NCBI GenBank assembly: GCA_903856085.1
Contig: CAIOAT010000029.1
Location: 3,507-67,506 of the forward strand
Reading direction: 5' to 3'
Length of the DNA: 64,000 nucleotides
Source of the DNA: Candidatus Omnitrophota bacterium
GTDB taxonomy: Bacteria > Omnitrophota > Omnitrophia > Omnitrophales > Aquincolibacteriaceae
Shown here: in pieces, positions 9,370 through 46,279 of the stretch
Numbering within the stretch: the first letter of the stretch is position 1
Layout: each line of letters begins with the position of its first letter
The notes under the pieces: generated by a model
Told to the model about the DNA's origin: nothing
What the model saw: the letters and a program-made list of their open reading frames with translations, nothing else
Database searches by the model: none
Translations under genes and position numbers: made by a program

Positions 9370-9393
9370 GAACCCATCACTCCTCGGTCAGCC

Positions 9394-10128: not shown

Positions 10129-10171
10129 AAATAATGCGGTCGCCTTTATTTTAATTTGGCGGAAAAGATGG

Positions 10172-10262
10172 CGGAGAGGGCGAGATTCGAACTCGCGAGA
10201 CCTTGTGAGTCTACCCGCTTTCCAGGCGAGCGCACTAGACCAGGCTATGCGACCTCTCCATA
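10172..10262 (-). tRNA. tRNA-Ser (anticodon GGA), class II with encoded CCA.
   Basis: The minus strand reads GGAGAGGTCGCATAGCCTGGTCTAGTGCGCTCGCCTGGAAAGCGGGTAGACTCACAAGGTCTCGCGAGTTCGAATCTCGCCCTCTCCGCCA. The anticodon arm is CTCGC / loop CTGGAAA / GCGGG, giving anticodon GGA. The T-loop is GCGAG TTCGAAT CTCGC. The 5' half is near-identical to the tRNA at 7843..7936. Confidence 0.85.
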
Positions 10263-14235: not shown

Positions 14236-14283
14236 GATAGCTTTCCTTTAATGAGCCCCGCCGCTTTGCGAAAACGGGACGAA

Positions 14284-17122
<2,839 letters not shown>

Positions 17123-17155
17123 GAAGAACCGTTCTATTATCGTCCTTTTTCCCGG

Positions 17156-18256: not shown

Positions 18257-18320
18257 AAAAGCTCCTTCTTCTTTTATTCTATATTAAAAACAGAAGTCTT
18301 AGTAATAAGACCTGTGAATT

Positions 18321-18383
18321 TGTGGATATCCTACACAACTATTTTAAAAAGAACGAGATATAAAAAAGTTTTTTTGTGGAAAA
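18321..18383. promoter_or_regulatory. DnaA-box cluster in the dnaA-dnaN intergenic region (candidate oriC half).
   Basis: TGTGGATAT at 18321-18329 and TGTGGAAAA at 18375-18383 each differ from the TGTGGATAA consensus by one base. They lie in an AT-rich spacer. Confidence 0.5.
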
Positions 18384-18388
18384 CGCCA

Positions 18389-19747
18389 CTACTTTTTTAA
18401 CAGCCCCGTTAACTTATCCAACAAGCTTCGCACCCCAACATCTTTATCTCTTTCTCCCGCGATTTTATTACAAGAGTGAAGAACAGTGGTGTGGTCTTTC
18501 CCTCCAAAAAATTCTCCAATCTCAGGAAAAGAGTGCGTTGTTAGTTCCCGGACCAGATACATCGCTATCTGTCGTGGACGCACAATAGAAACAGTCCTTT
18601 TTTTTGCCCGGAGATCTGAAACCTTTAAATTAAAATAGTCCGCCACCACCTTTTGAATGCCTTCTATGGTAAATTTTTGAGCTTCTTCTTTGAAAGAATC
18701 TTTCAATATCTCTTGAGCGAGGCGAACATCTACTTTGGAGTCGGTAAGAGTGCAATAAGCCACAACGCGGATAAGAGCGCCCTCCAATTCCCGGATATTC
18801 GACTTGATTTTTCCCGCAATAAAATACGACACATCATCAGGCACCACAACGGTTTCCAGCTCCATCTTCTTCTTTAAAATCGCGACGCGAGTTTCAAAAT
18901 CCGGCGGCTGGATGTCTGTGACAAGACCCCAGCCAAAACGAGAAACAAGCCGCTCTTCCAATCCCGGGATCTCACGGGGAGGCCGGTCGCTTGTGACAAC
19001 GATCTGCTTGTGAGCGTCGTAAAGAGTATTGAAGGTATTAAAGAACTCTTCCTGGGTAGAATTTTTTTCTGCTATAAAATGAACATCGTCGATTAGCAAA
19101 AGATCAAGGGTGCGATATTTTGCTCGGAACTGAGGGGTTGATTTTGTTTGAATGGCCGTGATCAGCTGATTGGTGAACTTTTCACTGGAAATGTACAGGA
19201 TCTTAAACTCCGGATGGCGCCTTTTCATCTCGTGGGCGATGGATTGTAAGAGATGGGTTTTTCCAAGACCCGTTGGGCCGTAAATAAAGAGAGGGTTGTA
19301 CTGTTTGGCCGGAGATTCGCTGACGGCGACGGAAGCCGCATGGGCAAAGCGGTTCCCTGGGCCGATCACAAAAGCATCAAAGGTGTATTTTTGATTCAAT
19401 CCCACGAGGACCTCATCCCTTTCTTTTGTCGGGGAAGAAATAGGCAGTGAGGGCGCAGCCTTGGGGAGCTCGACTACTTGATAGAGAATTTTCAAGGGGC
19501 GCCCGAGAACTTCTTCAGCAGAAGCAAGAATAAGGTTCTGATAGTGGTCTTCAAGCCATTTCCCATAGTATTGATCAGGGACGCTCAAGGTGAGAGCTTC
19601 AGCAGAAACGTCCAGGAGAGAAATGGGCTCAAACCAAGTTTTAAAAGACCGCTCGCTTAATTCCCGCGAGAGAAGAGAGCAAATTTTTTTCCAAAGGTCC
19701 GCCGGGGAGGTACCAGGGAGCGAAGAAAGGGGCTGATTTACTGACAT
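18389..19747 (-). CDS. dnaA: Chromosomal replication initiator protein DnaA
   Basis: It is 452 aa. The AAA+ Walker A is GPTGLGKTHLL. The C-terminal DNA-binding domain carries FGGKDHTTVLHSCNKI. Confidence 0.97.
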   Translation of the reverse strand: MSVNQPLSSLPGTSPADLWKKICSLLSRELSERSFKTWFEPISLLDVSAEALTLSVPDQYYGKWLEDHYQNLILASAEEVLGRPLKILYQVVELPKAAPSLPISSPTKERDEVLVGLNQKYTFDAFVIGPGNRFAHAASVAVSESPAKQYNPLFIYGPTGLGKTHLLQSIAHEMKRRHPEFKILYISSEKFTNQLITAIQTKSTPQFRAKYRTLDLLLIDDVHFIAEKNSTQEEFFNTFNTLYDAHKQIVVTSDRPPREIPGLEERLVSRFGWGLVTDIQPPDFETRVAILKKKMELETVVVPDDVSYFIAGKIKSNIRELEGALIRVVAYCTLTDSKVDVRLAQEILKDSFKEEAQKFTIEGIQKVVADYFNLKVSDLRAKKRTVSIVRPRQIAMYLVRELTTHSFPEIGEFFGGKDHTTVLHSCNKIAGERDKDVGVRSLLDKLTGLLKK

Positions 19748-20084
19748 AAGGACTCTTTTATAGTTATAAACAGGTTATTAATAAGAAAAAATTTATTATT
19801 TCCAATAATGTATTCTAATGAGATAAAATTACTTAAAATCAATAAATAGCTTATAAACATGTTTTCAACAGCGAAAAACAGGCCAAAATAAACGTTCGCT
19901 CCCAGACAAGGGGCGAACGCAACTCACAAGAGAGGTCATTCTACAGCAAAAAAATATTTTGTCCACGGGCAAAAAAAATTTTAACAAAAGAAAAGGTGAG
20001 AAAAGAAAAAGGGGAAAAGTTTTTTTGCCAGATCAAAATAAAACGCTGGATATTACCAGCGAACTTCACTATAATTCACGCCTC
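19748..20084. promoter_or_regulatory. Candidate oriC / DNA-unwinding element between divergent dnaA and rpmH.
   Basis: A very AT-rich tract runs about 19760-19860. The DnaA-box-like 9-mer TTATAAACA occurs twice, at 19764-19772 and 19851-19859, and TTGTCCACG occurs near 19958. Gene orientation switches here: everything from 608 to 19747 is on the minus strand, and everything from 20085 to 60646 is on the plus strand. Confidence 0.55.
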
Positions 20085-20222
20085 ATGAAAAGAACATACC
20101 AGCCTTCCAAAAGAAAACGTCGTAACAAGCACGGCTTTCTTGCCCGCACGCGGACTGCCGGAGGACGGAAAGTCCTCGCGCGCCGCCGGAAAAAGGGCCG
20201 GAAAAAGCTGACCCAAGTCTAA
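20085..20222 (+). CDS. rpmH: 50S ribosomal protein L34
   Basis: The product is [45 protein letters not shown], 45 aa. It uses the internal start of track ORF 19959..20222. TATAAT at 20070-20075 lies 10 nt upstream. Confidence 0.9.
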
Positions 20223-20225
20223 GCG

Positions 20226-20603
20226 TTGGAGCCAAAGAAGCGGCTCGGCGCGGAGCAGCGGATCCGCCGGCAAACGACCTTCAAATATCTCGTCGAGAGA
20301 GGACAATTCGCTCGAGGAGAGTTTTTTTATTTGTGGGTCGGCAAGCATGACGACAAAGAACGCACGGCTCTGAAACAAAAGCCCATGATCGGGATCGTGG
20401 TGAGCCGCAAAACGGATCCGACCGCAGTGGGACGGAACCTTTGGAAGCGCCGTGTCCGGGAGATTTTCCGGGAGAAGCAAGCGCAACTTCACCCAAAAGC
20501 GGTTTGTCTGGTGAAAGTTCGCCACACACAAAAGAAACCTTCTTTTTCGGCCGCGGAAGAAGACCTCGTCAAGCTTTTCAAAAAGGCAGGAGCCTGGGCG
20601 TGA
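20226..20603 (+). CDS. rnpA: Ribonuclease P protein component
   Basis: It is small and basic, in the conserved rpmH-rnpA-yidD-yidC order. RNR(L/I)RR-like IRRQ is near the N-terminus. Confidence 0.85.
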   Translation: MEPKKRLGAEQRIRRQTTFKYLVERGQFARGEFFYLWVGKHDDKERTALKQKPMIGIVVSRKTDPTAVGRNLWKRRVREIFREKQAQLHPKAVCLVKVRHTQKKPSFSAAEEDLVKLFKKAGAWA

Positions 20604-20809
20604 AATATTTCCTGATCCTCGCAATCCGTTTTTATCGCGCTTGCGTTGCGCCGCTTTGGGGTCCCTGTTGTCGCTTTACTCCGAGCTGTTCCGCTTATGC
20701 GGAAGAAGCGATGAGAAAAAAAGGCGCCCTTTCCGGCATGCGCCTTGCGTTCCTGAGGCTTTGCAAATGTCACCCCTTTCACCCCGGCGGATTCGACCCC
20801 GTTCAATAA
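20600..20809 (+). CDS. yidD: Membrane protein insertion efficiency factor YidD
   Basis: A GTG start overlaps the rnpA stop. The product is MKYFLILAIRFYRACVAPLWGPCCRFTPSCSAYAEEAMRKKGALSGMRLAFLRLCKCHPFHPGGFDP, which carries the YidD cysteine pattern. Confidence 0.85.
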   Translation: MKYFLILAIRFYRACVAPLWGPCCRFTPSCSAYAEEAMRKKGALSGMRLAFLRLCKCHPFHPGGFDPVQ

Positions 20810-20817
20810 GGAAAAAT

Positions 20818-22443
20818 ATGGATAAAAACACCGTTAAAGCAATCGTTCTCGCCATGATGGTCATGTTGCTTTACCCCATGCTTCTTAAGAAATTCTATCC
20901 CGCAGCATACCAGAAACAGCCCGCGAAGACGGCGGTCTCTCAGAGCGCGCCCGCCCCCCTGAAGGCAGAAACAGCTCTTGCGGCGTCCGAAGGGACGGCG
21001 CTGGAAAAGGCGGGAGCCCCGGCGGTCGTGTTTTTCGAGAACTCGTTTTACAAAGTGGAATTCTCCACGCTGGGCGGCACGATCACAGAGCTTTCTTTTC
21101 TGGGAGAGAAAGACCGCCAAGCTTTTACAAAAACAGACTTTTTTTTAGGCGATCCCCGCGAGTCCGGAATTTTTGGGGTGAGCTTTCTTCATGAGAACGC
21201 AGACCTTGCGGAAACAATCTTTAAAATGGTTCGCAAAGGTGAGAGCGTGGAGTTTTCCTATGAGATGCCCGGGGAATATCAACTGAGCAAAACCTATGTG
21301 TTTCGCGAAAACAGACCCGCGATCGATCTCATTGTCCGGATCAAGAATCTTTCCGGCCGCGAAAAACATTTTCCGGTTACGCTGAATTATGGAATGAGTT
21401 ACGAAGAGGGCTACCAGAAAAAATATGGATATTACGACGCGGTGGTCTCTTCCGACAAACTTCAGACCAAAGGGTTAGCCGGGATCAAGAGAAAAGGCTT
21501 TTTCTTCCCCGAACCAACCGCGTGGGCTGGTTTTATTAAAAAGTATTTCGCGCTGCTCGTGAAACCGGACGGAAAGATCATTGAGGGAAGCGCCAGGGTT
21601 GATAAGAAAAATCTTTGGGGGCAAATGACGCTGGAGCCTTTGACGGTGCCCGCGGGAGGAGAAGGCGAGCGAAGCTTTTTGATTTATGCCGGGCCGCAGC
21701 GCTCCGGGGTGCTTAAAAGTTTTGGGGCGGGTTTTGAAGAAGTTTTATCCCGAGGCTTCTTCGGGCTTTTTAAGACGGGGATTCTGACGGCGCTGAAATT
21801 TTTTAACCGATACACACATAATTTCGGATGGGCGCTTGTGCTCCTGACCTTTCTCATCAAACTGCTTTTTGCGCCGCTCACACATTTGAGCTATGCGAGC
21901 ATGAAAAAAATGCAAACCTTGGCGCCGAAGATGAAGTCAATCCAGGAACATCACAAAAAAGATCCCGCGAAATCCCAGCAAGAGATCATGGCGCTTTACC
22001 GGCGCAACAAAGTGAATCCGATGATGGGATGTCTTCCCATGCTGATCCAGATACCGGTTTTTATGGCCATGTTTAAACTTCTGCCCGAGGCGATCGAGCT
22101 TCATGGGGCTCCGTTCATCGGCTGGATCAAGGACCTTTCCGCTCCGGACCATTTTATGACACTCCCCTTCACCGTTCCTTTTCTGGGCTGGACCTCGCTT
22201 AACATTCTGCCGATCCTGATGGCCGGATCGCAGGTTTGGTATCAGAGGCTCATGCCGGCGCAACCGGGCTCGAGCCCTGAACAGAAGAGCATCATGAATA
22301 TTATGCCCATCTTTTTCGGGTTCATTTGTTACAACATGCCCGCAGGGCTCACGCTTTATTGGACCCTGCAGAACGTCTTTTCGATCATCCAGCAGACGTT
22401 CATTAATCGTATCGTGATCGTTCTGCACCACGAAGATCAATAA
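20818..22443 (+). CDS. yidC: Membrane protein insertase YidC
   Basis: The start is MDKNTVKAIVLAMMV, preceded by AAGGAAAAAT. It has a periplasmic domain plus the 5-TM core, with GCLPMLIQIPVFMAMF and LYWTLQNVFSIIQQ. Confidence 0.9.
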   Translation: MDKNTVKAIVLAMMVMLLYPMLLKKFYPAAYQKQPAKTAVSQSAPAPLKAETALAASEGTALEKAGAPAVVFFENSFYKVEFSTLGGTITELSFLGEKDRQAFTKTDFFLGDPRESGIFGVSFLHENADLAETIFKMVRKGESVEFSYEMPGEYQLSKTYVFRENRPAIDLIVRIKNLSGREKHFPVTLNYGMSYEEGYQKKYGYYDAVVSSDKLQTKGLAGIKRKGFFFPEPTAWAGFIKKYFALLVKPDGKIIEGSARVDKKNLWGQMTLEPLTVPAGGEGERSFLIYAGPQRSGVLKSFGAGFEEVLSRGFFGLFKTGILTALKFFNRYTHNFGWALVLLTFLIKLLFAPLTHLSYASMKKMQTLAPKMKSIQEHHKKDPAKSQQEIMALYRRNKVNPMMGCLPMLIQIPVFMAMFKLLPEAIELHGAPFIGWIKDLSAPDHFMTLPFTVPFLGWTSLNILPILMAGSQVWYQRLMPAQPGSSPEQKSIMNIMPIFFGFICYNMPAGLTLYWTLQNVFSIIQQTFINRIVIVLHHEDQ

Positions 22444-22520
22444 ATAACTCGGGGAACGTTCATCGGGGAACGGCAAACGGTAAGCGTTCTCCGTTCTACG
22501 TTTCCCGTTTCCCGGGAAAA

Positions 22521-24347
22521 ATGACTTCCACACAAAAATTCGCCGCAATCATTGTCGGTGCCGGGCACGCAGGCGTCGAAGCCTCCCTGGCCATCGCACG
22601 GTCCGGGCTCCCTGTTCTCGTGATTACCATGGATACGAACGCCATCGCGCGCATGTCCTGCAACCCCGCGATCGGCGGCCTTGCCAAAGGACATATTGTT
22701 CGCGAGATCGATGCGCTTGGCGGAGAAATGGGACTTGCGACCGACGCGACGGGCATTCAATTTCGCATGCTCAACAAGTCCAAGGGCCCGGCCGTGTGGG
22801 CGCCGCGCGCGCAGGCGGATAAGAAACAATACGAGCTTTATATGAAGGGCGTTCTCGAGGCGGAAAAAAATCTCACGCTTCGGCAAGGACAGGTCGTGGA
22901 GCTTCTTGTAAAAGACGGAGCGTGTTACGGCGTTCGTACAAAAGAAGGCGACACGTTTTTAGGCGAGCATGTGATCTTGACCACAGGCACTTTTTTGCAG
23001 GGATTGATCCATGTGGGCGAAGAAAAATTTCCGGGTGGGCGGCGCGATGAACCACCCGCGGTCGGTCTTTCTGATTCACTCCGCAGGCATGGCATCGAGC
23101 TTGTTCGTTTTAAGACAGGGACCCCCCCGCGGCTTCATCAAAAGAGCATCCGTTGGGAAATTCTGGAAGAACAAAAAGGCGATGAGCCGCCGCATCCTTT
23201 TTCCTATCAGACAACAAATTTTAAAGTTGAGCAACTCCCCTGCTTCTTGACGCATACCAATGAAAAAGTTCATGAGATCATTCGGGAAAACCTAAGCCGG
23301 TCCCCGCTTTATGCCGGCCGCATTCTGGGGGTCGGCCCCAGGTATTGTCCTTCGGTGGAAGATAAGGTGGTGAAGTTCCCGGACAAAAAAAGCCACCAGA
23401 TCTATTTGGAGCCCGAAGGACGTGAAACGCACGAGATCTACATGAATGGTTTTTCGACCTCACTTCCAAAAGATGTTCAAGAAAAGGCGCTGCGGCAGAT
23501 CCGCGGGCTTGAGGATGCCGAGATTCTGAAGTTTGGCTACGCGATTGAATACGACGCCGCGCCTCCTACCCAACTGAAACACTCGCTGGAAACCAAAAAG
23601 ATAAGGAATTTGTTTTTTGCGGGGCAGATTAACTGTACTTCCGGCTATGAAGAAGCTGCGGCCCAAGGCCTGATGGCCGGGCTTAATGTTCTCCGCAAGA
23701 TTTTTGGCGGAGGCGAATTTATTCTCGACCGGACCGAGGCGTATATCGCAGTGATGATCGACGATCTTGTGACCTGCGGTACGAATGAGCCCTACCGGAT
23801 GTTTACGTCGCGCGCGGAATTCCGGCTTCTGCTCCGGCAGGACAACGCGGACGAGAGGCTCATGTTTTACGGCCATCAGTTCGGGCTCATTTCCGAACAA
23901 ACATTTTCAGAATTCAACGAACGGATGGACCGAATGCGAAACGACATGCTGGAACTTAAAACAAAAAAAATAGGCGGCGACACGCTTTATCAATATTTGA
24001 AACGACCCGAAGCAAGCTATAACAAGCTTGTATTAAGTGGGTTACACTCATGCAATATGTCATCTGATGAAATTCATTGCGTCGAGACCGAAATAAAATA
24101 CGAAGGATATATTGCCCAACAGAGGCGAGAAGTTAATAAATTTTCGAAACTCGAAAAAAGAAAAATACCCGTCGATTTAAACTACGCGGAAGTTCCTGGG
24201 ATCGGCCGGGAAGCAAAAGAAAAGCTAAAAAAAATCCTACCCGAGTCTATAGGCCATGCGGCACGCATTCCAGGCATTTCTTCCTGCGACCTTTCCCTCC
24301 TCGCCGTCTTTATTGAAAAAAGAACAAGAGACGCGCTCAAGAAGTAA
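22521..24347 (+). CDS. mnmG: tRNA uridine 5-carboxymethylaminomethyl modification enzyme MnmG (GidA)
   Basis: The FAD motif is IVGAGHAGVEAS. It is 608 aa with a conserved C-terminal helical domain. Confidence 0.95.
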   Translation: MTSTQKFAAIIVGAGHAGVEASLAIARSGLPVLVITMDTNAIARMSCNPAIGGLAKGHIVREIDALGGEMGLATDATGIQFRMLNKSKGPAVWAPRAQADKKQYELYMKGVLEAEKNLTLRQGQVVELLVKDGACYGVRTKEGDTFLGEHVILTTGTFLQGLIHVGEEKFPGGRRDEPPAVGLSDSLRRHGIELVRFKTGTPPRLHQKSIRWEILEEQKGDEPPHPFSYQTTNFKVEQLPCFLTHTNEKVHEIIRENLSRSPLYAGRILGVGPRYCPSVEDKVVKFPDKKSHQIYLEPEGRETHEIYMNGFSTSLPKDVQEKALRQIRGLEDAEILKFGYAIEYDAAPPTQLKHSLETKKIRNLFFAGQINCTSGYEEAAAQGLMAGLNVLRKIFGGGEFILDRTEAYIAVMIDDLVTCGTNEPYRMFTSRAEFRLLLRQDNADERLMFYGHQFGLISEQTFSEFNERMDRMRNDMLELKTKKIGGDTLYQYLKRPEASYNKLVLSGLHSCNMSSDEIHCVETEIKYEGYIAQQRREVNKFSKLEKRKIPVDLNYAEVPGIGREAKEKLKKILPESIGHAARIPGISSCDLSLLAVFIEKRTRDALKK

Positions 24348-24683
24348 AAGAGTCTTTGAAAGCGATTCTAAGAACCTGCGGCTTTCAATCATGAGCCGGC
24401 AGCTCGTCTAGCGCCAGGCAGTGCAGCGCAAGCCTCGATAGCATAATGAAATATGCGCAGACATTTTAACGCCACAGTCAAAGATGGTTCGCTAATAAGC
24501 CCCACTATTTAAAACGGCCGCCGCTTTCTTTAACTTTCGAATAAATTTCTAAAGGTACGGTTTATATCGCGAAAAGGCATGGATAGTCGTGATGTATTGC
24601 AGGAGGATACTCATGACTGTGTTTTATAAGAATCAATACGACATGGCTATAAAGCGTTTATCTGTATGAGAAAAATAGAATAA

Positions 24684-24699
24684 TGTTTCACGTGAAACA
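24684..24699. promoter_or_regulatory. parS: parS centromere site (perfect 16-bp palindrome)
   Basis: TGTTTCACGTGAAACA is the canonical parS consensus. Confidence 0.85.
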
Positions 24700-24994
24700 A
24701 TCCACAAAAGACGGATAATAAAATATGCTCAGCGGTAAGAGTTGCTCGTGGAATATGGCTATGTTTTTTGAGGAAAACGGTCTATCGCGGAATGTTAGTA
24801 AAAGAGTTCTTAGCGGGACGCTTTGATAAAAACATCTCTTGAGACCAAAAAGCGAATGTTTATTATGGGCGTTCAAATAAAACAGCACAAATTTAGTTTG
24901 CCACAAAAGCAAATGTGTGTAAAATATCCAAAGAAAAGGACGATATGATCGCGTAGACGAATAATAGTAATTTTAAAAGCTCTGCCAATAGGAA

Positions 24995-25010
24995 CGTTTC
25001 ACGTGAAACA
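24995..25010. promoter_or_regulatory. parS: parS centromere site (15/16 match), 13 bp upstream of the parA start.
   Basis: The site reads CGTTTCACGTGAAACA. Confidence 0.8.
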
Positions 25011-25022
25011 TTCGGAGGATAT

Positions 25023-25916
25023 ATGGGGAAAACATTCTCATTCTTTAATCAAAAAGGAGGCGTCGGAAAAACGACCTCTGTCATCAACATAGCTACTGTT
25101 GTCGCCGGATTTGGGAAGAAAGTTTTACTAATAGATCTTGATTCGCAAGGCAATGCTACAAGCGGAGTTGGGATAGAAAAGAACGAAAATGAATCAACAG
25201 CTTATCAACTTCTTGTGGAAAACTCGGATCCTGCCGCGAGTATCAAGAAAACAACCATAGAGAGCCTTTGGATTATACCGTCAAATGCCCATCTGGCTGG
25301 CGCCGAGATGCATTTGATTAGCCAAGAAAAAAGAGAGTTTATTCTTAAAGAACAACTGAAAAAGATCTCAAACGATTACGATTTTATATTTCTTGATTGC
25401 CCGCCATCGCTTGGGCTAATAAGCATAAACGCTTTAACAGCAAGTAGTTATATAATCATACCACTTCAATGTGAATATTATGCACTTGAGGGTCTTGGAC
25501 AACTCCTTAACACCTATCAGCTTGTCAAAAAAAATCTAAGTGCGGAGCTTGAGCTTGGGGGCGTCATTCTGACCATGGCGGATTTTCGGACCAACCTCAC
25601 ACAGCAAGTTATAGAAGAGGTCCGTAATTATTTTAAAGAAAAAGCTTTTCAGAGCGTAATTCCAAGATCGGTAAAACTTTCCGAGGCGCCAAGCTTTGGA
25701 AAGCCAGCTGTTATTTATGACCCGCACAACCGTGGGTCTTTGGCCTATACAGAACTCGGGAAGGAATTTTTGATGCGCTTTGGCTCAGACGACGACCGGA
25801 AAGATTTTGCTCGAGTTGTGCAGGAGACCGTTGTTTCCACGACTCCAGAAGAGATGCAAAACACGGAAGCCGCGCCAGAATCCGAACAACCCCAGGCAGC
25901 CCAAACGAATCCGTAA
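25023..25916 (+). CDS. parA: Chromosome partitioning ATPase ParA/Soj, with an acidic C-terminal extension.
   Basis: The deviant Walker A is NQKGGVGKTTSVINIA. It is 297 aa. Confidence 0.95.
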   Translation: MGKTFSFFNQKGGVGKTTSVINIATVVAGFGKKVLLIDLDSQGNATSGVGIEKNENESTAYQLLVENSDPAASIKKTTIESLWIIPSNAHLAGAEMHLISQEKREFILKEQLKKISNDYDFIFLDCPPSLGLISINALTASSYIIIPLQCEYYALEGLGQLLNTYQLVKKNLSAELELGGVILTMADFRTNLTQQVIEEVRNYFKEKAFQSVIPRSVKLSEAPSFGKPAVIYDPHNRGSLAYTELGKEFLMRFGSDDDRKDFARVVQETVVSTTPEEMQNTEAAPESEQPQAAQTNP

Positions 25917-25952
25917 AACATATAACTTGTTTATAGAGAAGGAGTTAAAAAA

Positions 25953-26900
25953 ATGAAAAAAGCTCTTGGTAAAGGATTAAGCGCGCTGATTCCTGACAGC
26001 TATAAGGAACATATGGCCGCGACAGAAAAAGAAAATCTCACAACAGCGGCCACCATTACCTCGGAGCCAGAGGCTATTGTGAGCGCAGCGGTTCTTCCGG
26101 CGAAGGACTCGGCATTTCAGCTGATACCAACATCATTGATTGCGCCAAATGCAGACCAACCGCGCAAAAATTTTAACGTAGAAACGATAGAAGAACTTGC
26201 GAGCTCTATTCGCGAAAAAGGTATCTTGCAGCCGATCATCGTGAAGAAGAAAGGCGAGGGAGCTTTTGAGATAGTGTGCGGCGAGCGACGCTTTCGCGCC
26301 GCGACGCTTTGCGGCTTGGCGGAAGTGCCAGCCATCATTAAAGATATCGCGGACGAAGATTTCCTGGAATGGGCGCTGATCGAGAACATTCAGCGCGAAG
26401 ACTTGAATCCTATCGAGGAAGCGGAAGCGTATCAGCGCCTCGTGGAAGAGCGAATGATCTCCCAAGAAGAGGTCGCGAAGCGGGTGGGGAAGAACCGCGT
26501 AACGGTTACGAACACGCTCAGACTTTTACGCCTGCCCCCGGAAGTGAAACAATATTTGGCGGACGGCAGACTATCCGCGGGACACGCGCGCGCGCTCCTC
26601 GGACTTCTGTCCCCGGAACATCAAAGGCAAATGGCCAAAAGAATCGTCGATGAGAATTTGTCGGTGCGCCAGGTCGAAGCCATCGTCAATCGAAGCAATG
26701 CGCATAAGCGAAAGGCGAAGTCCGCCCGGCATCTCAGCGCCGAAATCGTGGATCTTGAAACGCGCCTCACACATTTTCTCGGAACCCAGGCAAAGATCTA
26801 TCCGCGAAAGAACCAGAAAGAAGGTCGCCTTGAGATCCAGTATTTTTCTTTAGACGATCTCGATCGCGTTCTCCAGAAGATTGGTCTGCCGAAAGGTTGA
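25953..26900 (+). CDS. parB: Chromosome partitioning protein ParB/Spo0J
   Basis: The ParB box reads GERRFRAA. HTH and ParB N-terminal domains are present. Confidence 0.95.
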   Translation: MKKALGKGLSALIPDSYKEHMAATEKENLTTAATITSEPEAIVSAAVLPAKDSAFQLIPTSLIAPNADQPRKNFNVETIEELASSIREKGILQPIIVKKKGEGAFEIVCGERRFRAATLCGLAEVPAIIKDIADEDFLEWALIENIQREDLNPIEEAEAYQRLVEERMISQEEVAKRVGKNRVTVTNTLRLLRLPPEVKQYLADGRLSAGHARALLGLLSPEHQRQMAKRIVDENLSVRQVEAIVNRSNAHKRKAKSARHLSAEIVDLETRLTHFLGTQAKIYPRKNQKEGRLEIQYFSLDDLDRVLQKIGLPKG

Positions 26901-37624: not shown

Positions 37625-38790
37625 AACAAGGTTATTTGCAGGGAATAGAACAACTGAAACATGACAATCTCTATCGCAAACTCCGCGTCCTGGAAAGGCA
37701 TGAAGGCGTGCGGGCTTTTTTTAAAGGCCGCAAATTGCTGCTTTTTTGTAGTAATGATTATCTAGGGCTAAGCCGGCATCCCCGCGTGGTTCATGCGGCC
37801 CAAAAGGCGCTGAAAAAATATGGCGTGGGAGCAGGCGCCGCGCGGCTTATCTCGGGAACCACGGACGCTCACACTGCCCTCGAAAAAAAGATCGCGCAAT
37901 TTAAAAGAAAAGAAAGCGCGCTTGTGTTTGCCGCTGGGTTTCTCGCGAATCTCGGCATTTTGACGACCTTTGCTGGCGAGCAAGACGTTATTATCATGGA
38001 CAAACTTTGTCACGCGTCGCTCGTGGAGGGTGCCCGTCTTTCAAAAGCCGAATTTCGCGTCTTTCCGCATAAAAACTATAAAAAATGTGAAGATCTTCTT
38101 CGGGGCGCACAAGGCGCGCGACGGCGGATCCTCGTGACCGAAACGGTCTTTAGCATGGATGGAGACCTTGCGGATCTCAAGGAGCTTGTCCGGTTGAAAG
38201 AAAAATACAATGCATTGCTTGTAGTCGACGACGCGCACGGAACGGGCGTTCTCGGAGCGCACGGACGCGGAGCAACGGAAAATGGCGGTCTGGCCCAAAA
38301 GATAGATATCATTATGGGGACGCTTTCCAAAGCCATAGGCGGGCTTGGTGGGTTTGTGGCCGCGGATAAAATCTTGATCGATTACCTCGTCAATTTTGCA
38401 AGGCCGTTCATTTTTGCCACGGCGCTTCCGCCGGCGCTCTGTGAAGCTGCGCGTGAAGCGTTGTGTGTGATCGACGAAGAGCCGACGGCGAGGGAAAAAC
38501 TTTGGCGAAATATCAGCGCGGTTCATCAAGGATTGACCCGGAGCGGATTCTCGATCGCAAAACCTGAGTCCGCGATCCTGCCCGTCATGGTGGGCGATGA
38601 AGGAAAAGCGATGGAGATTTTTGATAAACTTCTCGCGCGAGGAATTTTTATTCCGGCGGTGCGTTACCCGACTGTTCCCAAAGGCAAAGCCCGGCTCCGG
38701 GTGACCGTTAGCGCCGCGCATTCGGAGAAAGATATTTGCAAGCTCCTGGGGGCATTTCAAGCGCTGAGCCGAGAAGAATTCACCCGATGA
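37621..38790 (+). CDS. bioF: 8-amino-7-oxononanoate synthase
   Basis: The PLP lysine region is GTLSKAIGGLGGFV. The protein is alpha-oxoamine-synthase-like. Its ATG overlaps the KAS stop in an ATGA arrangement. Confidence 0.9.
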   Translation: MKQGYLQGIEQLKHDNLYRKLRVLERHEGVRAFFKGRKLLLFCSNDYLGLSRHPRVVHAAQKALKKYGVGAGAARLISGTTDAHTALEKKIAQFKRKESALVFAAGFLANLGILTTFAGEQDVIIMDKLCHASLVEGARLSKAEFRVFPHKNYKKCEDLLRGAQGARRRILVTETVFSMDGDLADLKELVRLKEKYNALLVVDDAHGTGVLGAHGRGATENGGLAQKIDIIMGTLSKAIGGLGGFVAADKILIDYLVNFARPFIFATALPPALCEAAREALCVIDEEPTAREKLWRNISAVHQGLTRSGFSIAKPESAILPVMVGDEGKAMEIFDKLLARGIFIPAVRYPTVPKGKARLRVTVSAAHSEKDICKLLGAFQALSREEFTR

Positions 38791-39230
38791 AAAAGATTAT
38801 TTCCACGATGGCGGTCATGATGTTTTTGACGTCGTCGAGTTCTTATGCGGAGTTTAAGTCAGCGCAACAGATTGTCCCGACGCCAATGCTCATGCTCATT
38901 CTCAAATCCGATAAACAAACATATATTGCGGATGAGAGAGTCAGTCTTTTGTTAACTGTGAAAAACTTGGGCTCTCAAGGGGCGCAGCTCTTTGATGGAC
39001 CTTATTTGCGGACAAGGGTGGTGTTCGATAACAAGGAATATAAAAACACAGGCGGTATCGCTTGGGGCGGGCCCGATGCTGTTCCGCCGGGGAGTGAAAT
39101 GAACATCGCCGTTGAACTGTCAGCTTATGGCATTACCAAAGATATGTTGAATTCGGGCGAACACTCTGTTGTTGTAAAGCTAAACGGAGCTATTTCTAAC
39201 GCTCTCAGTTTCAAAATCAAAGAGAAATGA
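38787..39230 (+). CDS. Small secreted protein of unknown function inside the bio operon.
   Basis: The start, MKKIISTMAVMMFLTSSSSYA, overlaps the bioF stop in an ATGA arrangement. The signal peptide is followed by a beta-rich, about 125-aa mature part. Confidence 0.5.
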   Translation: MKKIISTMAVMMFLTSSSSYAEFKSAQQIVPTPMLMLILKSDKQTYIADERVSLLLTVKNLGSQGAQLFDGPYLRTRVVFDNKEYKNTGGIAWGGPDAVPPGSEMNIAVELSAYGITKDMLNSGEHSVVVKLNGAISNALSFKIKEK

Positions 39231-40692: not shown

Positions 40693-40767
40693 CGGTTCAC
40701 GGGCCATGTACCATGAGCCGGATACTGCCTTTGCATGGACCGTAGGGTGTGGACTGTGGAGCGCGTT

Positions 40768-41505
40768 ATGAAACCAGGTATTTTTATTACAGGAACAGAT
40801 ACCGACGTCGGGAAAACAGTGGTTTCCGCCGGGCTCGCGCTTGTCCTCCGGGGCCGCGGGATGAAGGTTGGCGTGATGAAACCCGTGGCGACCGGCTGCT
40901 ATGGTAGCGATGAAAAGCTTATCTCCCAAGATGCGGCCTTCTTGATGGAAGCTGCCCAAAACGAATACCCGCCGCTCACGAGTCCGTCACGATTCCGCAA
41001 TCCTCTTTCGCCGAACGTTGCGGCCATGCTCGAAAAAAAAGAAGTAGACGTTCCCAACATCCTTAAAAGTTATCGCGAACTTCAGAAACACTATGATTTC
41101 ATAATTGTGGAGGGCGTGGGCGGGCTTATGGTCCCGCTCAAGAAAGATTATTACGTCGCCAACCTTATCCGCGACATGGGATTGCCGATCGTGATCGTGT
41201 CGTACGCGGGGCTTGGTGCGATCAATCACACGCTGCTTACCGTGGATGCAGCCACGATCCGGGGGCTGGAAGTGCGCGGCATTATCTTTAACCGTGTCGC
41301 CGTGGCGAATTATTCGCTGGCCGAACTTACGAACCCGAAGGTCATTCATGACCTTTCCGGCGTTCCGATCCTTGGCAGCTTGCCCAACATTGAGGGTCTG
41401 AACATGGACAACTGTCAGTTCGGGAAGCTTAAGGAGATTTTCCAGGAGCGCATTCGAGTCGACAAGATCGCGGGAAATCTTGTCGGTGCCATCCCCCAAA
41501 AATAA
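40768..41505 (+). CDS. bioD: Dethiobiotin synthetase
   Basis: The start is MKPGIFITGTDTDVGKT, which includes the P-loop. Confidence 0.9.
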   Translation: MKPGIFITGTDTDVGKTVVSAGLALVLRGRGMKVGVMKPVATGCYGSDEKLISQDAAFLMEAAQNEYPPLTSPSRFRNPLSPNVAAMLEKKEVDVPNILKSYRELQKHYDFIIVEGVGGLMVPLKKDYYVANLIRDMGLPIVIVSYAGLGAINHTLLTVDAATIRGLEVRGIIFNRVAVANYSLAELTNPKVIHDLSGVPILGSLPNIEGLNMDNCQFGKLKEIFQERIRVDKIAGNLVGAIPQK

Positions 41506-41587: not shown

Positions 41588-43027
41588 ATGATTCTCTCTA
41601 ATAAAAATCACCGGGTAACCATGACAGCCCAAGGCGCCATTCCTGAAAAGAAGAAAAGACCAGGACGGAAAGCGATCGGCATTCGGCTTGAAAGAAAAAA
41701 AGATGCGAGCCTGCTTAACTGGAATCTTAAGCGTCCTTATCCTCCCGAAAAGATACACATTCCCATCCCCGTAGCTGCAGAGCCGTGTGTTCGGGTCGGA
41801 GACATTGTTCAGACGGGACAAAAGATCGCAGAGCCGAAGGGGCCGGGAGGTGTAAGCCTTCACGCCAGCATGCCAGGAGTCGTGGAAAGGATCGAGAATT
41901 TTCCCGATGCGGTGGGACGGAAAAGTTTGATGATTGAAATCCGCAAGCACGGGGAACCCAAGCCTATTCCGGCTGCGGAAGCTCGCAAAGGATGGACCGA
42001 GATTCCGGCAGAAGAGCTCTTGAGGATTTTTCAATATTCCGGGCTTGTGACCACGGACCCACGCATGGAACCCGTTCACGTCAAGCTTGGACGACATGCC
42101 GGAGCGCGAACGATCATCATCAACGGTTGTGAACCAGAGCCTTACATCACCGGCGAACAAGTGCTCACCCTTTCGCATCCCGTGGAAATATTAAAAGGCG
42201 CTGAATTACTCAAAAAAGCCCTCGGCGCGGTTCCCACACCGATCAATTTCAGAGGGTCTGAAATGGGGGCCGTCCCGGCTACCGTCGATCCACAGAAAAT
42301 AAAAATTGGGGCGGAAAAAATCATTTTTGCACTTGAGAACTCAAACCTGGAGATGATGGAGCTCATTAAGAGCAAGATCTACTTTCTGAAGTGGGAGCAC
42401 GCCGAAGTGCGGAGCGTGCCTGCGCTTTACCCGCAGGGTTTGGAAAGCACCCTGCTTCAGGCATGGTTTCCGGGGGAGGAGGAGAAGGCTGTTGTGTTCC
42501 CGGCATCTACGGCATTCGCAGCCTATGAAGCCGTCGCACTAGGGAAATCTTTTTATGAAAAAGTCGTGACCGTGGGAGGCGAATGTGTGGTTGAACCACG
42601 CAGTCTTTGGCTGCCGATCGGAATCTCATTCCACGATGCGATCCAAGCCTGCAAAGGAGTCATGCGCGAGCCGCAAAAGATCCTGATGGGTGGGCCGATG
42701 GCCGGGACAGTGCAGGCGACATCGGAAGTTCCCGTGATGGTCGGTACGACTGCCATCCTCGCGCTTCCCAAAGAGGTTGTAAAAGATGCGATAGCGGAAC
42801 CCTGCATTCGATGCAATCTTTGCGTGGACCATTGTCCCGTCTCGCTTTCACCGGCGATGATCACGTTGGCTGCGGACCAAAAAGAATTCGCGACTGCGGA
42901 GGAATGGGGTGTTTCGGAATGCATCGAATGCGGGAATTGCGCCTATGTATGTCCGTCCAAGCGGCCGATGCTGGAGCTGATCCGTTTGGCGCGCTCACGG
43001 GGAGAAGCGGCGGTGGGTCATGGCTGA
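41588..43027 (+). CDS. rnfC: RnfC-like subunit with two 4Fe-4S ferredoxin motifs and a degenerate flavin/NADH loop.
   Basis: It aligns by eye to RsxC/RnfC: IINGCEPEPYITGEQ, ILMGGPMAGT, and two CxxCxxCxxxCP motifs (CIRCNLCVDHCP, CIECGNCAYVCP). Where RnfC has GLGGAGFPTG, this protein has SGLVTTDPRMEP. Confidence 0.72.
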   Translation: MILSNKNHRVTMTAQGAIPEKKKRPGRKAIGIRLERKKDASLLNWNLKRPYPPEKIHIPIPVAAEPCVRVGDIVQTGQKIAEPKGPGGVSLHASMPGVVERIENFPDAVGRKSLMIEIRKHGEPKPIPAAEARKGWTEIPAEELLRIFQYSGLVTTDPRMEPVHVKLGRHAGARTIIINGCEPEPYITGEQVLTLSHPVEILKGAELLKKALGAVPTPINFRGSEMGAVPATVDPQKIKIGAEKIIFALENSNLEMMELIKSKIYFLKWEHAEVRSVPALYPQGLESTLLQAWFPGEEEKAVVFPASTAFAAYEAVALGKSFYEKVVTVGGECVVEPRSLWLPIGISFHDAIQACKGVMREPQKILMGGPMAGTVQATSEVPVMVGTTAILALPKEVVKDAIAEPCIRCNLCVDHCPVSLSPAMITLAADQKEFATAEEWGVSECIECGNCAYVCPSKRPMLELIRLARSRGEAAVGHG

Positions 43028-43877
43028 AGCAACGCTTTCCTATAAAAGAGTTTTGCCGCCACACATCCATTCCACGGCTTCTTTGGCGAAGCGTAATTGG
43101 GGGCAGCTGATCGCACTCGCGCCCCTCTTTGTGACAGCCTGTCTTACCGGGCACGCGGAAATTCTGCGCGTTCTTTTGATTTGCCTGGTGAGCGCAGTCG
43201 CGTTCGAATTTCTGGCGGGGAAGCTTTTTCATAAAAAAGAGAGTCTGCGGAACGGCGAAGCCGTGCTTGCCGCAGCCCTCTTCTCGCTCCTTATGCCTTC
43301 AAGATGTCCCTCCGAGGTTGTGATCCTCGGTGTTTTTAGCGCGGTTTTTGCCGCCAAAGAGCTTTTCGGCGGGACAGGCAACTATCTTTTGCATCCGCTT
43401 CTTCTGGCGCGCGTATTTTTACAGCTTTGTTTCCCCAAAGTCATGTCGGAGCCCATGCTTTTAGCAGGCGACGGTAATATTTGGGTGCTTGCTGCAATCG
43501 GTCTCGGTGGGATCATTTTTTTAAAACAAAAACAAGGCTATTGGAAAACACCGATTCTTTTTATGGCGACCTGTTTTATCTGCGAGGCTTTGTTAGGAGG
43601 GCAGGCGATGCCGTTAACGTTTTTTAGCGCCGTTCTTTTCACAGCCTTCTTTCTTTTGGCCGACCCTGTGACCCTGCCGTTGACGCGGAGAGGTACGATG
43701 CTTTTCGTTCTCTGCGCGGCGCTTTTAAGCTCGCGGCTCAGCTCGGAGGGATTTTCGATCCAAGGAGTCGGTTATGCGATTCTTCTGATGAACCTCCTGA
43801 CGCCTTGGCTAGAGGTCTGGCTCAAGCCCACTCCGTACAAGACAAAAAACCAATTCAAAGCGACTTATTTGTCATGA
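43020..43877 (+). CDS. rnfD: RnfD-like membrane subunit, shortened.
   Basis: [27 protein letters not shown] aligns with RnfD's [44 protein letters not shown] aligns with LTDPVTASTTNRGRLIF. It is about 285 aa against a typical ~350, and the periplasmic loop that carries the FMN-attachment Thr appears to be missing. Confidence 0.72.
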   Translation: [285 protein letters not shown]

Positions 43878-44003
43878 ATATAAAAAAAGTAGCAATGGTG
43901 GCAGCGCAATATCTATTCCTGGTGTTTTTTTTGGCATTGCTCGCGGCGATCCTTTACGCGGCACAACTTTTAAGAGGATGAACATGACAGAAGGCCCGGT
44001 TCT

Positions 44004-44582
44004 ATGAAATTACCCGAAAGCCTTTTCTCGAGGATGTTTCTGGCTTACCTTCCCTTTATGGTCTATCCGTACGGTTTTTTCAAGGCCGGCGTTGCAGCGC
44101 TGTGGATCGTCGGCTTTCTCTGGGGCACGGTTACTTTTTTCTGGTTCACGCGTCGCCTTTTCCCTGGCCGTTCTCTAAAACACGCCTTCTTCCTCTGGCT
44201 TATTGTATGGGCACAAGCCGTATGGACGCTCACGAAATTGCCGCCCTACTGGATCGTGAGCGTTTTCTTCCTAACGCCTGTTTCTTTTCTTGACGACGCG
44301 GCGAACCCAAGCCATGTTCGTGTGTTTTCCAAAGAAGTGCCCCGGTATTTTTTTGAACGCGCGCTAGCCGGGGTCGGCTTTGCGGGTTTCGTGATACTGT
44401 TGGCGCTCGTTCGAGAGATCGGTGAAAAACGTCTTGGGATACAAGCGTTCGAGCAGCCGGCGGGCTTGTTGCTTGTGATCGCGGTCGTTGCTTTCTTGTG
44501 GAAAAACCAACCGTACCATATGCGGTCCCAGCGTCCACCCGTTCCAGAAAACTTAAAACTGGGACGGTCCAAGTTCCCATAA
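44004..44582 (+). CDS. RnfA/RnfE-like polytopic membrane protein (divergent)
   Basis: The C-terminal region ALAGVGFAGFVILLALVREIGEKRLG resembles RnfA's [26 protein letters not shown]. It has multiple TM segments. Confidence 0.48.
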   Translation: MKLPESLFSRMFLAYLPFMVYPYGFFKAGVAALWIVGFLWGTVTFFWFTRRLFPGRSLKHAFFLWLIVWAQAVWTLTKLPPYWIVSVFFLTPVSFLDDAANPSHVRVFSKEVPRYFFERALAGVGFAGFVILLALVREIGEKRLGIQAFEQPAGLLLVIAVVAFLWKNQPYHMRSQRPPVPENLKLGRSKFP

Positions 44583-44610
44583 ATGGAAACAAAGACTTTG
44601 CGGAGATAAA

Positions 44611-45117
44611 ATGTATTTTTTGATCATCACCTTTGGCTTTTTGTTGGCAATGCGCGGCGCGAGGCCTGCGCCTCTACAAAGACCCGGCGAAGGACTCGGG
44701 CGCATTTGGAGCGAAGCCACAGATTTTTTTCTTACCACGAGTTTGATCCTTGCTCTTTGGGCGCTTGCCATGGCTTTTGGAAAAACCCAAGCGGGGGCTC
44801 GGGAATATGCGGTCGCGGGGCTTGGAATAGCGGCCTATCTGTTTTCACGGTATCAGAAAAAAACCGATACCTTCTTCCTTTCCGTGTTAGCGAGTGTTTT
44901 TATGATTCTCTCAAGAGAGCCCGATCTTTTGTGGGGGATTTTTCTTGCCTGGATTGTGAGTTCGGGGATCGCGCTTTTTCAGACCTGTTTTCTAGGTTTA
45001 AGATACAAACTTCTTTTTTCGCACGTTCCGACCGCCATGAAGGGATGGCCCATCCTGTGTCTTTTGGCTGGATTGATCTCTGTTGTTTTGCGGAATCTCG
45101 GGAGCTTGGTTTTCTAA
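44611..45117 (+). CDS. RnfA/RnfE-like membrane protein (divergent)
   Basis: LRYKLLFSHVPTAMKGWPILCLLAGLISVV resembles RnfA's [30 protein letters not shown]. It is hydrophobic and 168 aa. Confidence 0.42.
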   Translation: MYFLIITFGFLLAMRGARPAPLQRPGEGLGRIWSEATDFFLTTSLILALWALAMAFGKTQAGAREYAVAGLGIAAYLFSRYQKKTDTFFLSVLASVFMILSREPDLLWGIFLAWIVSSGIALFQTCFLGLRYKLLFSHVPTAMKGWPILCLLAGLISVVLRNLGSLVF

Positions 45118-45193: not shown

Positions 45194-46279
45194 ATGGCCA
45201 TTGAAGACATTCTGTTAGGAGCGGTTGAAAAAGAAGCTTCGGACATACATCTTACTGTGGGCCGTCCCGTGACCTACCGCATGGTCGGATCCCTGGTCTC
45301 AGTGGGCGAGAAGATATTGACCCAGCAGGATACCGAGGCCTTTGCCAAAGAAGTTACGACCGAAGTTCAGCGCAAAAAGATCGAAGAGGTCGGCGGCATC
45401 GATTTTGGGTTTTCGTTCAGAGACAGGGCGCGCTTTCGTGTCTCCTGCTTCAAACAGCAAGGCCATTACTCGCTTGTGTTACGCCTTCTCCCGGCCAAGT
45501 TTTACAGCTTTCAGGATATTGGATTGCCGATGCAATTGATCGAGACGTTAAGCCTGCCGCGTGGACTGGTTCTTGTGACGGGTCCCACGGGGTGCGGTAA
45601 AACGACCACCCTCGCGACGATGCTCAATTACATCAATGAAAATTTCCCAAAACACATTATCACAGCGGAAGATCCGGTCGAATTTATGCACCATCACAAG
45701 AAGTGTGTGGTGACGCAGCGCGAGGTTGGGGACGACGTCCCGAGTTTTTCAGAAGCGATCGTGAAATCTTTGCGCCAAGACCCGGATGTCATTCTTATCG
45801 GAGAGATGAGGGATCTGGCGACCATGGAATCCGCCATTCGCGCTGCCGAAACCGGCCATCTAGTATTCTCCACACTTCACACCACAGGTGCTGCCCGAAC
45901 GGTCGACCGCATTATCGACGTCTTTCCGGCCTATCAACAGCCGCTGGTCCGCGTTCAGCTTTCTTCCACCATTGTTGCGGTAATCTCGCAGGTGCTTGTG
46001 CCGCGTCTGGATGGCAATGGGCGCGTGGCGGCGTTCGAGATCATGTTCGCGACTCCGGCCATCCGTAACCTCATTCGCGAAGGTAAGACCTACCAGATTC
46101 TTTCCGAGCTTCAGACCGGTTCGCGCTATGGCATGATCATGCTGGACGATTACCTCAAACAGCTTTACGCGCAGGGCATTATCGGTTATGAAGCTGCACT
46201 CGAATTCGCCGTGGATCCTCGCGAGCTTGGCCTCCAGCTTTCCAGGGTTCAGCCCGTAAACAGGGGCAGAGGCAGGTAA
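45194..46279 (+). CDS. pilT: Type IV pilus retraction ATPase PilT
   Basis: The Walker A is VLVTGPTGCGKTTT. Asp/His boxes and GEMRD are present, along with a PilT-type C-terminus. Confidence 0.9.
   Translation: MAIEDILLGAVEKEASDIHLTVGRPVTYRMVGSLVSVGEKILTQQDTEAFAKEVTTEVQRKKIEEVGGIDFGFSFRDRARFRVSCFKQQGHYSLVLRLLPAKFYSFQDIGLPMQLIETLSLPRGLVLVTGPTGCGKTTTLATMLNYINENFPKHIITAEDPVEFMHHHKKCVVTQREVGDDVPSFSEAIVKSLRQDPDVILIGEMRDLATMESAIRAAETGHLVFSTLHTTGAARTVDRIIDVFPAYQQPLVRVQLSSTIVAVISQVLVPRLDGNGRVAAFEIMFATPAIRNLIREGKTYQILSELQTGSRYGMIMLDDYLKQLYAQGIIGYEAALEFAVDPRELGLQLSRVQPVNRGRGR

Follow-up and report, generated by a model that had tools for sequence, protein, structure and literature searches.

Does a gene cluster that pairs rnfC with rnfD and lacks both rnfB and a full-length rnfG still encode an Rnf complex? 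The question is raised by positions 41588 to 45117 of a 64-kb stretch of Candidatus Omnitrophota DNA (GCA_903856085.1, contig CAIOAT010000029.1), hereafter called the window, to which coordinates refer unless another locus is named. A first-pass annotation had described this locus as a reduced Rnf-like gene set made of rnfC, rnfD, and two divergent rnfA/rnfE-like genes, with eroded flavin sites, and the sequence features that it quoted were all found where it had placed them, far above chance. Our analysis indicates that the locus very probably descends from rnfCDGEA, is conserved within Omnitrophota, and has lost nearly every redox cofactor site of Rnf.

In Rnf, electrons enter from ferredoxin through RnfB and pass via the [2Fe-2S] cluster of RnfAE and the flavin mononucleotide (FMN) of RnfG to the FMN of RnfD; from the RnfD riboflavin they then reach the two [4Fe-4S] clusters of RnfC, the RnfC FMN, and finally NAD+ (PMC12174285, PMC9588780). 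The cofactors of the RnfAEDG/NqrEDBC core have been described as strictly conserved (PMC12174285). The locus consists of five tightly packed open reading frames (ORFs) on the + strand, in the order rnfC-D-G-E-A, which we mark with a prime: rnfC' (41588-43027), rnfD' (43020-43877), rnfG' (43874-43981), rnfE' (ORF3; 44004-44582), and rnfA' (ORF4; 44611-45117). Because rnfC' and rnfD' overlap by 8 nt and rnfD' and rnfG' by 4 nt (ATGA), followed by gaps of only 22 nt between rnfG' and ORF3 and 28 nt between ORF3 and ORF4, the rnfC'D'G'E'A' operon is translationally coupled. It is flanked by bioD (40735-41505) on one side and a gene for a pilT-like ATPase (45194-46279) on the other. A scan for promoters and terminators around the operon returned nothing above background.

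RnfC' scored above the curated cutoff of the TIGR01945 rnfC model (E = 1.1e-77; 261 bits against a cutoff of 246) and matched the RnfC chains 9eri_C, 7zc6_C, and 8ahx_C of the PDB at E values of 1e-50 to 1e-54. Its Pfam domains (RnfC_N, Complex1_51K, SLBB, and Fer4) correspond to the RnfC N-terminal domain, the NuoF-like domain, SLBB, and two [4Fe-4S] ferredoxin domains. The start codon is ambiguous, and independent gene callers use both ATG 41588, giving 479 amino acids (aa), and ATG 41621, giving 468 aa. Both CxxCxxCxxxCP motifs are intact (CIRCNLCVDHCP and CIECGNCAYVCP; 42803-42955, + strand, within matches to the Fer4 family), with cysteines C406/409/412/416 and C445/448/451/455, and these eight Fe-S cysteines are invariant across nine divergent loci spanning the family. 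The NuoF-type FMN/NADH glycine loop of RnfC (GxGGAGFP) is not present in alignments with 9eri_C, 7zc6_C, 8ahx_C, and RsxC. The sequence SGLVTTDPRMEP (42038-42073, + strand) stands where RnfC has the loop GLGGAGFP: in the alignment with Acetobacterium woodii RnfC (9eri_C), 'GLVTTDPRMEPVHVKL' lies opposite 'GIVGLGGATFPTHVKL', and the FMN-binding loop 'GLGGATFP' of the solved RnfC chains pairs with 'LVTTDPRMEP'. The residues at this place vary by lineage among the nine divergent loci (TTDPRME, VTDGTNE, SMDRLME, TDFKREN, and others), and therefore no new conserved site has evolved there.

RnfC' also carries a 28-aa in-frame insert (approximately 42233-42316) that is private to the window's protein and missing from the other loci in the alignment; with its flanking codons, the stretch containing VPTPINFRGSEMGAVPATVDPQKIKIGA occupies 42221-42328 on the + strand, as delimited by the RnfC' alignment and blastn. 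The insert forms a hairpin, ATTTCAGA-GGG-TCTGAAAT, followed by GGGGCCGTCCC. The window has it only once, and a search of the related loci gave no exact match; partial copies were detected by blastn at the tail of ORF3 in L001 (3245-3278) and L002 (5217-5256), and similar-looking in-frame inserts occur elsewhere in RnfC' of L001, L002, and L004 and in the ORF3 homologues P0172, P0188, and P0192. The insert resembles a mobile, palindromic repeat of small size that is tolerated within coding sequence, outside the conserved protein, and we take it to be reminiscent of the Rickettsia palindromic repeat elements. The N-terminal extension of RnfC' is likewise highly variable among close relatives. 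In L001 (48-1648), the segment for the first ~27 residues is present three times in tandem at the 5' end of rnfC', at 48-128, at 130-210, and from 212.

RnfD' (285 aa) matched PF03116 with an E value of 1e-48 in two stretches, leaving out profile positions ~136 to 210, and the RnfD chains of the PDB also matched it in two stretches separated by a gap. We aligned this region with Escherichia coli RsxD, the canonical metagenomic RnfDs P0119 and P0120, and the PDB chains. RnfD' has a deletion in place of the RsxD loop '...GISQAT187PLD', the junction of the deletion reads 'SEPM' (43446-43457, + strand), and Glu144 of 'MSEPML' occupies the threonine column. T187 was verified as the RsxD position equivalent to the flavinylated threonine, which in Clostridium tetanomorphum RnfD is T153, with D248 at the riboflavin/Na+ pocket (PMC9588780). 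Between the FP and GG anchors, RnfD' has 24 residues against 94 in RsxD. The first-pass annotation had thus been right that both 4Fe-4S motifs of RnfC' are kept, that its glycine loop is replaced, and that RnfD' lacks the loop bearing the covalent-FMN threonine; its estimate that RnfD' is about 65 aa shorter holds against RsxD (67 aa) but not against the clostridial RnfDs, which are only 25 to 33 aa longer.

An exhaustive HMMER search with RnfD' found the short loop in 80 of the 138 nearest RnfD representatives (clusters at 50% identity), so that there are at least 80 clusters of short RnfDs; all five clusters named by organism are Omnitrophota. The 80 short representatives retain FGGxG..F[H]PA and TDPVTTPxTRxG, two core blocks of RnfD, and with them the Asp equivalent to C. 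tetanomorphum D248. NCBI and JGI label short RnfDs (P0003, P0010, P0012, and others) as 'RnfABCDGE type electron transport complex subunit D' or, alternatively, as 'Na+-translocating ferredoxin:NAD+ oxidoreductase subunit D'.

The position of rnfG is occupied by a 35-aa ORF encoding a single-helix peptide (MNIKKVAMVAAQYLFLVFFLALLAAILYAAQLLRG; 43874-43981, + strand). It was matched in eight related loci by tblastn (E = 1e-11 to 6e-6), seen by direct translation in L011 and as an uncalled copy in L013, and called by independent gene callers; with its dN/dS (see below), it is a real gene. The N-terminal helix motif [KR][YW]xF[FL]VxFL...L...A[RQ] is common to this peptide and to a full-length RnfG homologue, as judged by comparing the 211-aa RnfG-like protein of L017, a 109-aa stub of L016, and the 35-aa peptide. 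Since a conserved ORF stands in the rnfG position, RnfG cannot be called absent; it is vestigial, and what remains of it is the N-terminal membrane helix. The statement of the first-pass annotation that neither RnfG nor RnfB is encoded here consequently needs amending: it had missed this remnant, but among the genes of the 64-kb window that were scanned with Pfam, there was no rnfB, FMN_bind (RnfG), or ApbE. Neither rnfB, the polyferredoxin gene, nor an rnfG FMN domain nor apbE flanks the cluster in any related locus that was fetched. Here and throughout, the sequence inspected comprised 64 kb of the source genome and, for the relatives, flanks of up to 10 kb to either side of the cluster.

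ORF4 and ORF3 both encode polytopic membrane proteins. For ORF4, we obtained matches to TIGR01943 (E = 2.5e-5), to the Azotobacter vinelandii RnfA chain 8ahx_A of the PDB (E = 8e-5), and, with hhalign, to an RnfA/NqrE alignment (95.5% probability, E = 1.5e-8), and no hhalign match to RnfE. Its AlphaFold model has a predicted local distance difference test score (pLDDT) of 80, and the top three PDB matches in Foldseek are RnfA chains (probability, 0.97 to 1.0). Recognizable conservation in the ORF4 family is limited to the last two, C-terminal helices of RnfA. In one relative, L005, rnfA' is split over two frames (6220-6724; two tblastn segments in different frames), which points to an assembly error or, alternatively, to a real frameshift in a single lineage.

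The homology of ORF3 to RnfE emerged only after adding the divergent L011-L017 relatives and small RnfE/RnfA alignments of PDB chains. ORF3 alone matched nothing in Pfam and NCBIfam, a narrow ORF3 profile (A1) matched nothing in the PDB, and hhalign of A1 against the single E. coli RsxE or RsxA sequences gave no match. A broad profile (A7) matched just one of 177,635 PDB sequences, A. woodii RnfE (E = 0.0033, 134 positions). Nine of 20 family members matched PF02508 (Rnf-Nqr; best E = 5.8e-5), and no other family recurred comparably. By hhalign, the family aligned with RnfE collinearly over 129 columns (E = 0.0078, probability 5%), and the top Foldseek matches of the ORF3 model (pLDDT, 79) are NqrD and RnfE, with E values of about 0.6 to 0.9. 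These signals are modest but concordant. Residues past ~175 form a lineage-specific tail. hhalign detected no match between ORF3 and ORF4, which are too diverged to be recognized as paralogues of each other. The resemblance to the RnfA/RnfE C terminus that had been proposed for both proteins thus stands for ORF4, as a divergent RnfA homologue, and more weakly for ORF3, as a divergent RnfE homologue. Relatives of ORF3 and ORF4 are mostly labelled 'hypothetical protein' in public databases.

In RnfA/E, four cysteines, from one 'LGxCP' and one 'TNC' motif per subunit, bind the intramembrane [2Fe-2S] cluster (PMC12174285); in E. coli they are C26 and C114 of RsxA and C26 and C109 of RsxE. A census of cysteines found none conserved in the ORF3 family. 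In the ORF4 family, only C126 and C150 are mostly conserved, both C-terminal and away from the ligand positions, and the first 125 residues have no conserved cysteine. The profile alignments place 'LGMCP' opposite 'LAYLP', and the 'NC' of RnfE opposite 'FL'. The 'eroded flavin sites' of the first-pass annotation therefore understate the loss: the glycine loop and the FMN-threonine loop are indeed gone, but so are the [2Fe-2S] cysteines.

As read from these alignments, the two [4Fe-4S] motifs of RnfC' are the only cofactor sites still visible. Five stations of the Rnf route are absent, which excludes ferredoxin:NAD+ oxidoreduction and redox-driven ion pumping; to judge from its predicted proteins, the complex cannot be either a ferredoxin:NAD+ oxidoreductase or a redox-driven ion pump. 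Its function almost certainly differs from what the database labels say. By homology it descends from Rnf, but it falls outside the functional family because five defining features that we tested are all missing.

Selection on the operon was estimated by simple pairwise Nei-Gojobori comparisons of nonsynonymous and synonymous substitution rates (dN/dS), in which synonymous sites are near saturation for distant pairs; median values were 0.15 for rnfC', 0.17 for rnfD', 0.25 for rnfG', 0.13 for rnfE', and 0.28 for rnfA', against 0.06 for the neighbouring pilT and 0.05 for bioD. The operon is under purifying selection, yet it evolves 2 to 5 times faster than its neighbours. A word-indexed search for close relatives retrieved, at 90% identity, ~118 clusters for RnfD', ~114 for ORF3, and ~118 for ORF4, nearly all of which are labelled hypothetical or 'RnfD'. 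The closest loci, with 69 to 79% RnfD identity, are Omnitrophota metagenome-assembled genomes (MAGs), and two of these MAGs belong to the class Omnitrophia, family Aquincolibacteriaceae, genus XYB12-FULL-50-7 (Aquincolibacterium) (PMC10066038 supplement).

Eighteen related loci, with identities as low as 28%, have intact ORFs in a conserved order and with conserved synteny; rnfC' is always accompanied by rnfD'. Upstream, the order is bioB-fabG-KAS-bioF-bioA-bioD, followed by RnfC'-RnfD'-(small ORF)-~173 aa-~171 aa and, downstream, by pilT-polA-coaE-rho-rpmE-prfA, and this synteny is kept in L009-L019 at 28 to 49% RnfD identity. A specific functional link to pilT was considered and rejected, as the region from bioB to prmC is syntenic as a whole and L015 has no pilT beside the cluster. 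In three loci, a DsbA-like gene lies between rnfC' and rnfD' (L015, 2542-4914; L016, 5600-6895; L019, 5766-7034). The encoded proteins are membrane anchored, with two to three DsbA/Thioredoxin_4 domains, and the active sites in L016 read CPYS and CPFC.

Several divergent loci retain intermediate states. L017 encodes a 211-aa RnfG homologue that aligns with A. vinelandii RnfG (8ahx_G) over residues 5 to 188 (E = 7e-7) and has no match to Pfam FMN_bind; its flavinylation motif has changed from 'GAT' to 'GNF' (Thr to Phe). RnfD of the same locus (310 aa) retains the loop, which reads 'MTAALPPL' (Thr to Leu). In L016, RnfD (302 aa) has an 'LTNHPL' loop (Thr to His) and the G position holds the 109-aa stub, while the other loci have peptides of 35 to 49 aa in this position. 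All intermediates of the L016/L017 type are already without the RnfA/E cysteines, and the RnfC glycine loop is already gone in L015 and L016. Because such intermediates survive in L016 and L017, the flavinylation threonines appear to have been lost first by substitution, and the loops and domains that carried them would have been deleted later. Together with the alignments, the purifying selection, and the synteny, these intermediates bear out the earlier proposal of a minimal or repurposed Rnf-like complex that is not a standard oxidoreductase.

We then compared the complex with known systems. It shares with Rnf (7ZC6, 8AHX, 9ERI) five of six homologous subunits and the gene order C-D-G-E-A, as well as the RnfC domains, the RnfD core blocks, the RnfE fold, and the C-terminal helices of RnfA. 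Unlike Rnf, it has no RnfB, no FMN/NADH loop in RnfC, no flavinylated-threonine loop in RnfD, only a 35-aa helix of RnfG, and no [2Fe-2S] cysteines in RnfA and RnfE; with these cofactor stations missing, the defining Rnf electron path cannot exist here. Na+-NQR has the same membrane core, and its NqrA is a cofactor-less RnfC homologue (PMC12174285) that is nevertheless an essential subunit. However, NqrA has lost its Fe-S clusters, whereas RnfC' retains them, and none of the covalent FMNs, riboflavin, [2Fe-2S] cluster, NqrF, or NqrB quinone helices of NQR was recorded here. The NCBIfam nqrA and nqrB models scored 34 to 63 bits against cutoffs of 321 to 450, and the window scans returned neither NqrF nor NqrC. 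The 'NQR/RNF-like' systems (Meheust et al. 2021, PMC8238504) are also partial Rnf/Nqr derivatives of uncultured lineages, but they are RnfD-NqrF fusions tied to flavinylation by ApbE/FMN-binding proteins, whereas RnfD' stands alone with its 285 aa and the window has no PF00175, ApbE, or FMN_bind. RnfD is related to the Amt/urea transporters (PMC12174285), and RnfD' resembles ammonium/urea transporters in being polytopic, of related fold, and without flavins; it differs in being clearly an RnfD (PF03116) coupled to an Fe-S subunit and to RnfE/A-like partners. A soluble RnfC of the PrdC type was rejected, as TIGR04481 scored 81 bits against a cutoff of 490 and rnfC' overlaps rnfD'; PrdC and its relatives stand alone, with an intact FMN site and no coupling to RnfD. 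A conserved Rnf complex in Omnitrophota is spoken of in two papers. Our literature search found no paper naming Omnitrophota together with RnfD, and no description of a whole Rnf/Nqr core losing its cofactors while under selection.

What, then, might the complex do? We lean slightly toward the view that a respiratory ion pump has as a whole evolved into a 'pseudo-enzyme', whose scaffold and two cytoplasmic [4Fe-4S] clusters have been retained by selection for a new, non-pumping function; this might be a redox-gated conduit for ions or solutes or a novel entry of electrons into the membrane at its cytoplasmic face. As a tentative mechanism, which we consider possible and would not put at even chances, the RnfC' clusters would serve as a redox input with no outlet, controlling what passes through RnfD'. 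The five proteins would still assemble like the Rnf core, with RnfC' docking at the cytoplasmic face of RnfD' and RnfG', RnfE', and RnfA' acting as scaffold. A soluble low-potential carrier, e.g., ferredoxin, would set the redox state of the RnfC' clusters, which would terminate, at the central pocket of RnfD', an electron path that leads no further. This pocket, the riboflavin/Na+ site in Rnf, retains its Asp, and the redox state of the clusters would gate or modulate the passage of ions or solutes. Taken as a whole, i.e., origin, mechanism, and evolution together, this account is in our estimate probably the best explanation, by a modest degree of confidence.

Several points weigh against it. 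The gating step is one that we infer; the Fe-S clusters of RnfC' could be purely structural; and riboflavin binding by RnfD' is putative, the Asn flanking the riboflavin (C. tetanomorphum N124) being replaced by His. RnfE' and RnfA' are the fastest evolving and weakly recognizable subunits, and the evidence relating ORF3 to RnfE is modest piece by piece. Finally, the DsbA-like gene present in three lineages is a hint of a link to periplasmic thiol-redox chemistry, for which the model has no explanation.

Other explanations have to be weighed against the same evidence. The invariance of the eight Fe-S cysteines and the retained Asp of the RnfD riboflavin/Na+ site would also suit the main rival, a throughput oxidoreductase at the cytoplasmic face, in which a soluble donor such as ferredoxin would reduce the RnfC' clusters, these the RnfD' riboflavin, and the latter a membrane acceptor such as ubiquinone, much like the last steps of Na+-NQR without the transmembrane loop. 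There is precedent in NQR, where riboflavin passes electrons directly to ubiquinone and where the RnfC homologue, NqrA, is without FMN (PMC12174285). Moreover, a ferredoxin-to-quinone route would be of use to Aquincolibacterium, for which complex I, ubiquinone, cytochrome bd, and an electron-bifurcating [FeFe] hydrogenase are predicted. We nevertheless consider this unlikely: the amphipathic N-terminal helices of the NqrB quinone site are missing from the 285-aa RnfD', no donor docking site was identified, the scheme gives no reason for selection on RnfE', RnfA', and the RnfG helix, and the cluster is also found in very divergent Omnitrophota, which may or may not have a quinone. The DsbA/Thioredoxin_4 proteins encoded between rnfC' and rnfD' in L015, L016, and L019 would fit a membrane partner for periplasmic thiol-disulfide chemistry by such in-operon oxidoreductases. 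This is quite improbable, given that the window and most loci have no DsbA-like gene, that neither a conserved cysteine pair nor a periplasm-facing redox centre is left in RnfD', RnfG', RnfE', and RnfA', and that L016 and L019 share flanking genes and may represent one insertion event.

The faster evolution of the cluster relative to its neighbours, the rnfA' frameshift in L005, and the tolerated in-frame repeat insertions are what one would see in a non-functional relic, a pseudo-operon decaying en route to loss. We hold this to be very improbable and rejected pseudogene decay on the basis of dN/dS and conservation: all five ORFs have dN/dS values between 0.13 and 0.28, intact ORFs and synteny persist across the 18 loci and more than 100 protein clusters, and the Fe-S cysteines are invariant. 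A standard Rnf complex with rnfB and rnfG located elsewhere in the genome is harder still to credit. Our inspection covered the 64 kb here and up to 10 kb on each side in relatives, and canonical six-gene rnfBCDGEA clusters do occur in other, anaerobic Omnitrophota (PMC8542988 supplement). However, supplying Rnf subunits from elsewhere would leave the path broken regardless, because the FMN loop of RnfC', the FMN threonine of RnfD', and the cluster cysteines of RnfA' and RnfE' are missing; in addition, the rnfG position is taken by a conserved remnant, and the intermediates show decay in place.

The operon lies ~22 kb away from dnaA, and the remaining genes of the window are otherwise housekeeping genes, apart from the clusters described here. 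The neighbourhood of the replication origin spans 11719-26900, with gyrA, gyrB, dnaN, and dnaA on the - strand and yidC, mnmG, parA, and parB on the + strand; the cumulative GC skew reaches its minimum near 16 to 18 kb, and the GC content dips to 0.42 at 18 to 20 and 24 to 26 kb. On the - strand at 600-10130, a sulfate activation cluster encodes a fusion of CysN with adenosine 5'-phosphosulfate (APS) kinase and a CysD resembling 3'-phosphoadenosine 5'-phosphosulfate (PAPS) reductase, together with two sulfotransferases and several glycosyltransferases of families 2 and 92, which suggests the synthesis of a sulfated glycan or glycolipid. Scans of the window with Rfam and for tRNAs returned only two tRNA-Ser genes (7843-7936 and 10169-10259), both in or at this cluster and far from the operon. 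Within the biotin operon, a 164-aa ORF with an N-terminal hydrophobic segment and no Pfam match lies between bioF and bioA (38736-39230); at that place L012 has instead a 50-aa ORF and a nitroreductase gene.

These findings bear on how Omnitrophota genomes are read. Pipelines that count RnfC and RnfD may credit these bacteria, including the predicted aerobic Aquincolibacteriaceae, with energy conservation by Rnf, of which this locus is incapable, and Rnf may thus be over-called in automated reconstructions. The family is also a natural experiment in which the membrane core survives without its cofactors, with stepwise intermediates in living lineages. It opens the questions of what the scaffold alone can do, such as ion conduction by RnfD or alternating access in RnfA/E, and of the order in which cofactor sites can be lost. 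The position of the operon near the replication origin, between the biotin genes and pilT/polA, is fixed across the divergent loci examined, and this points to a housekeeping role in an uncultured and poorly understood phylum.

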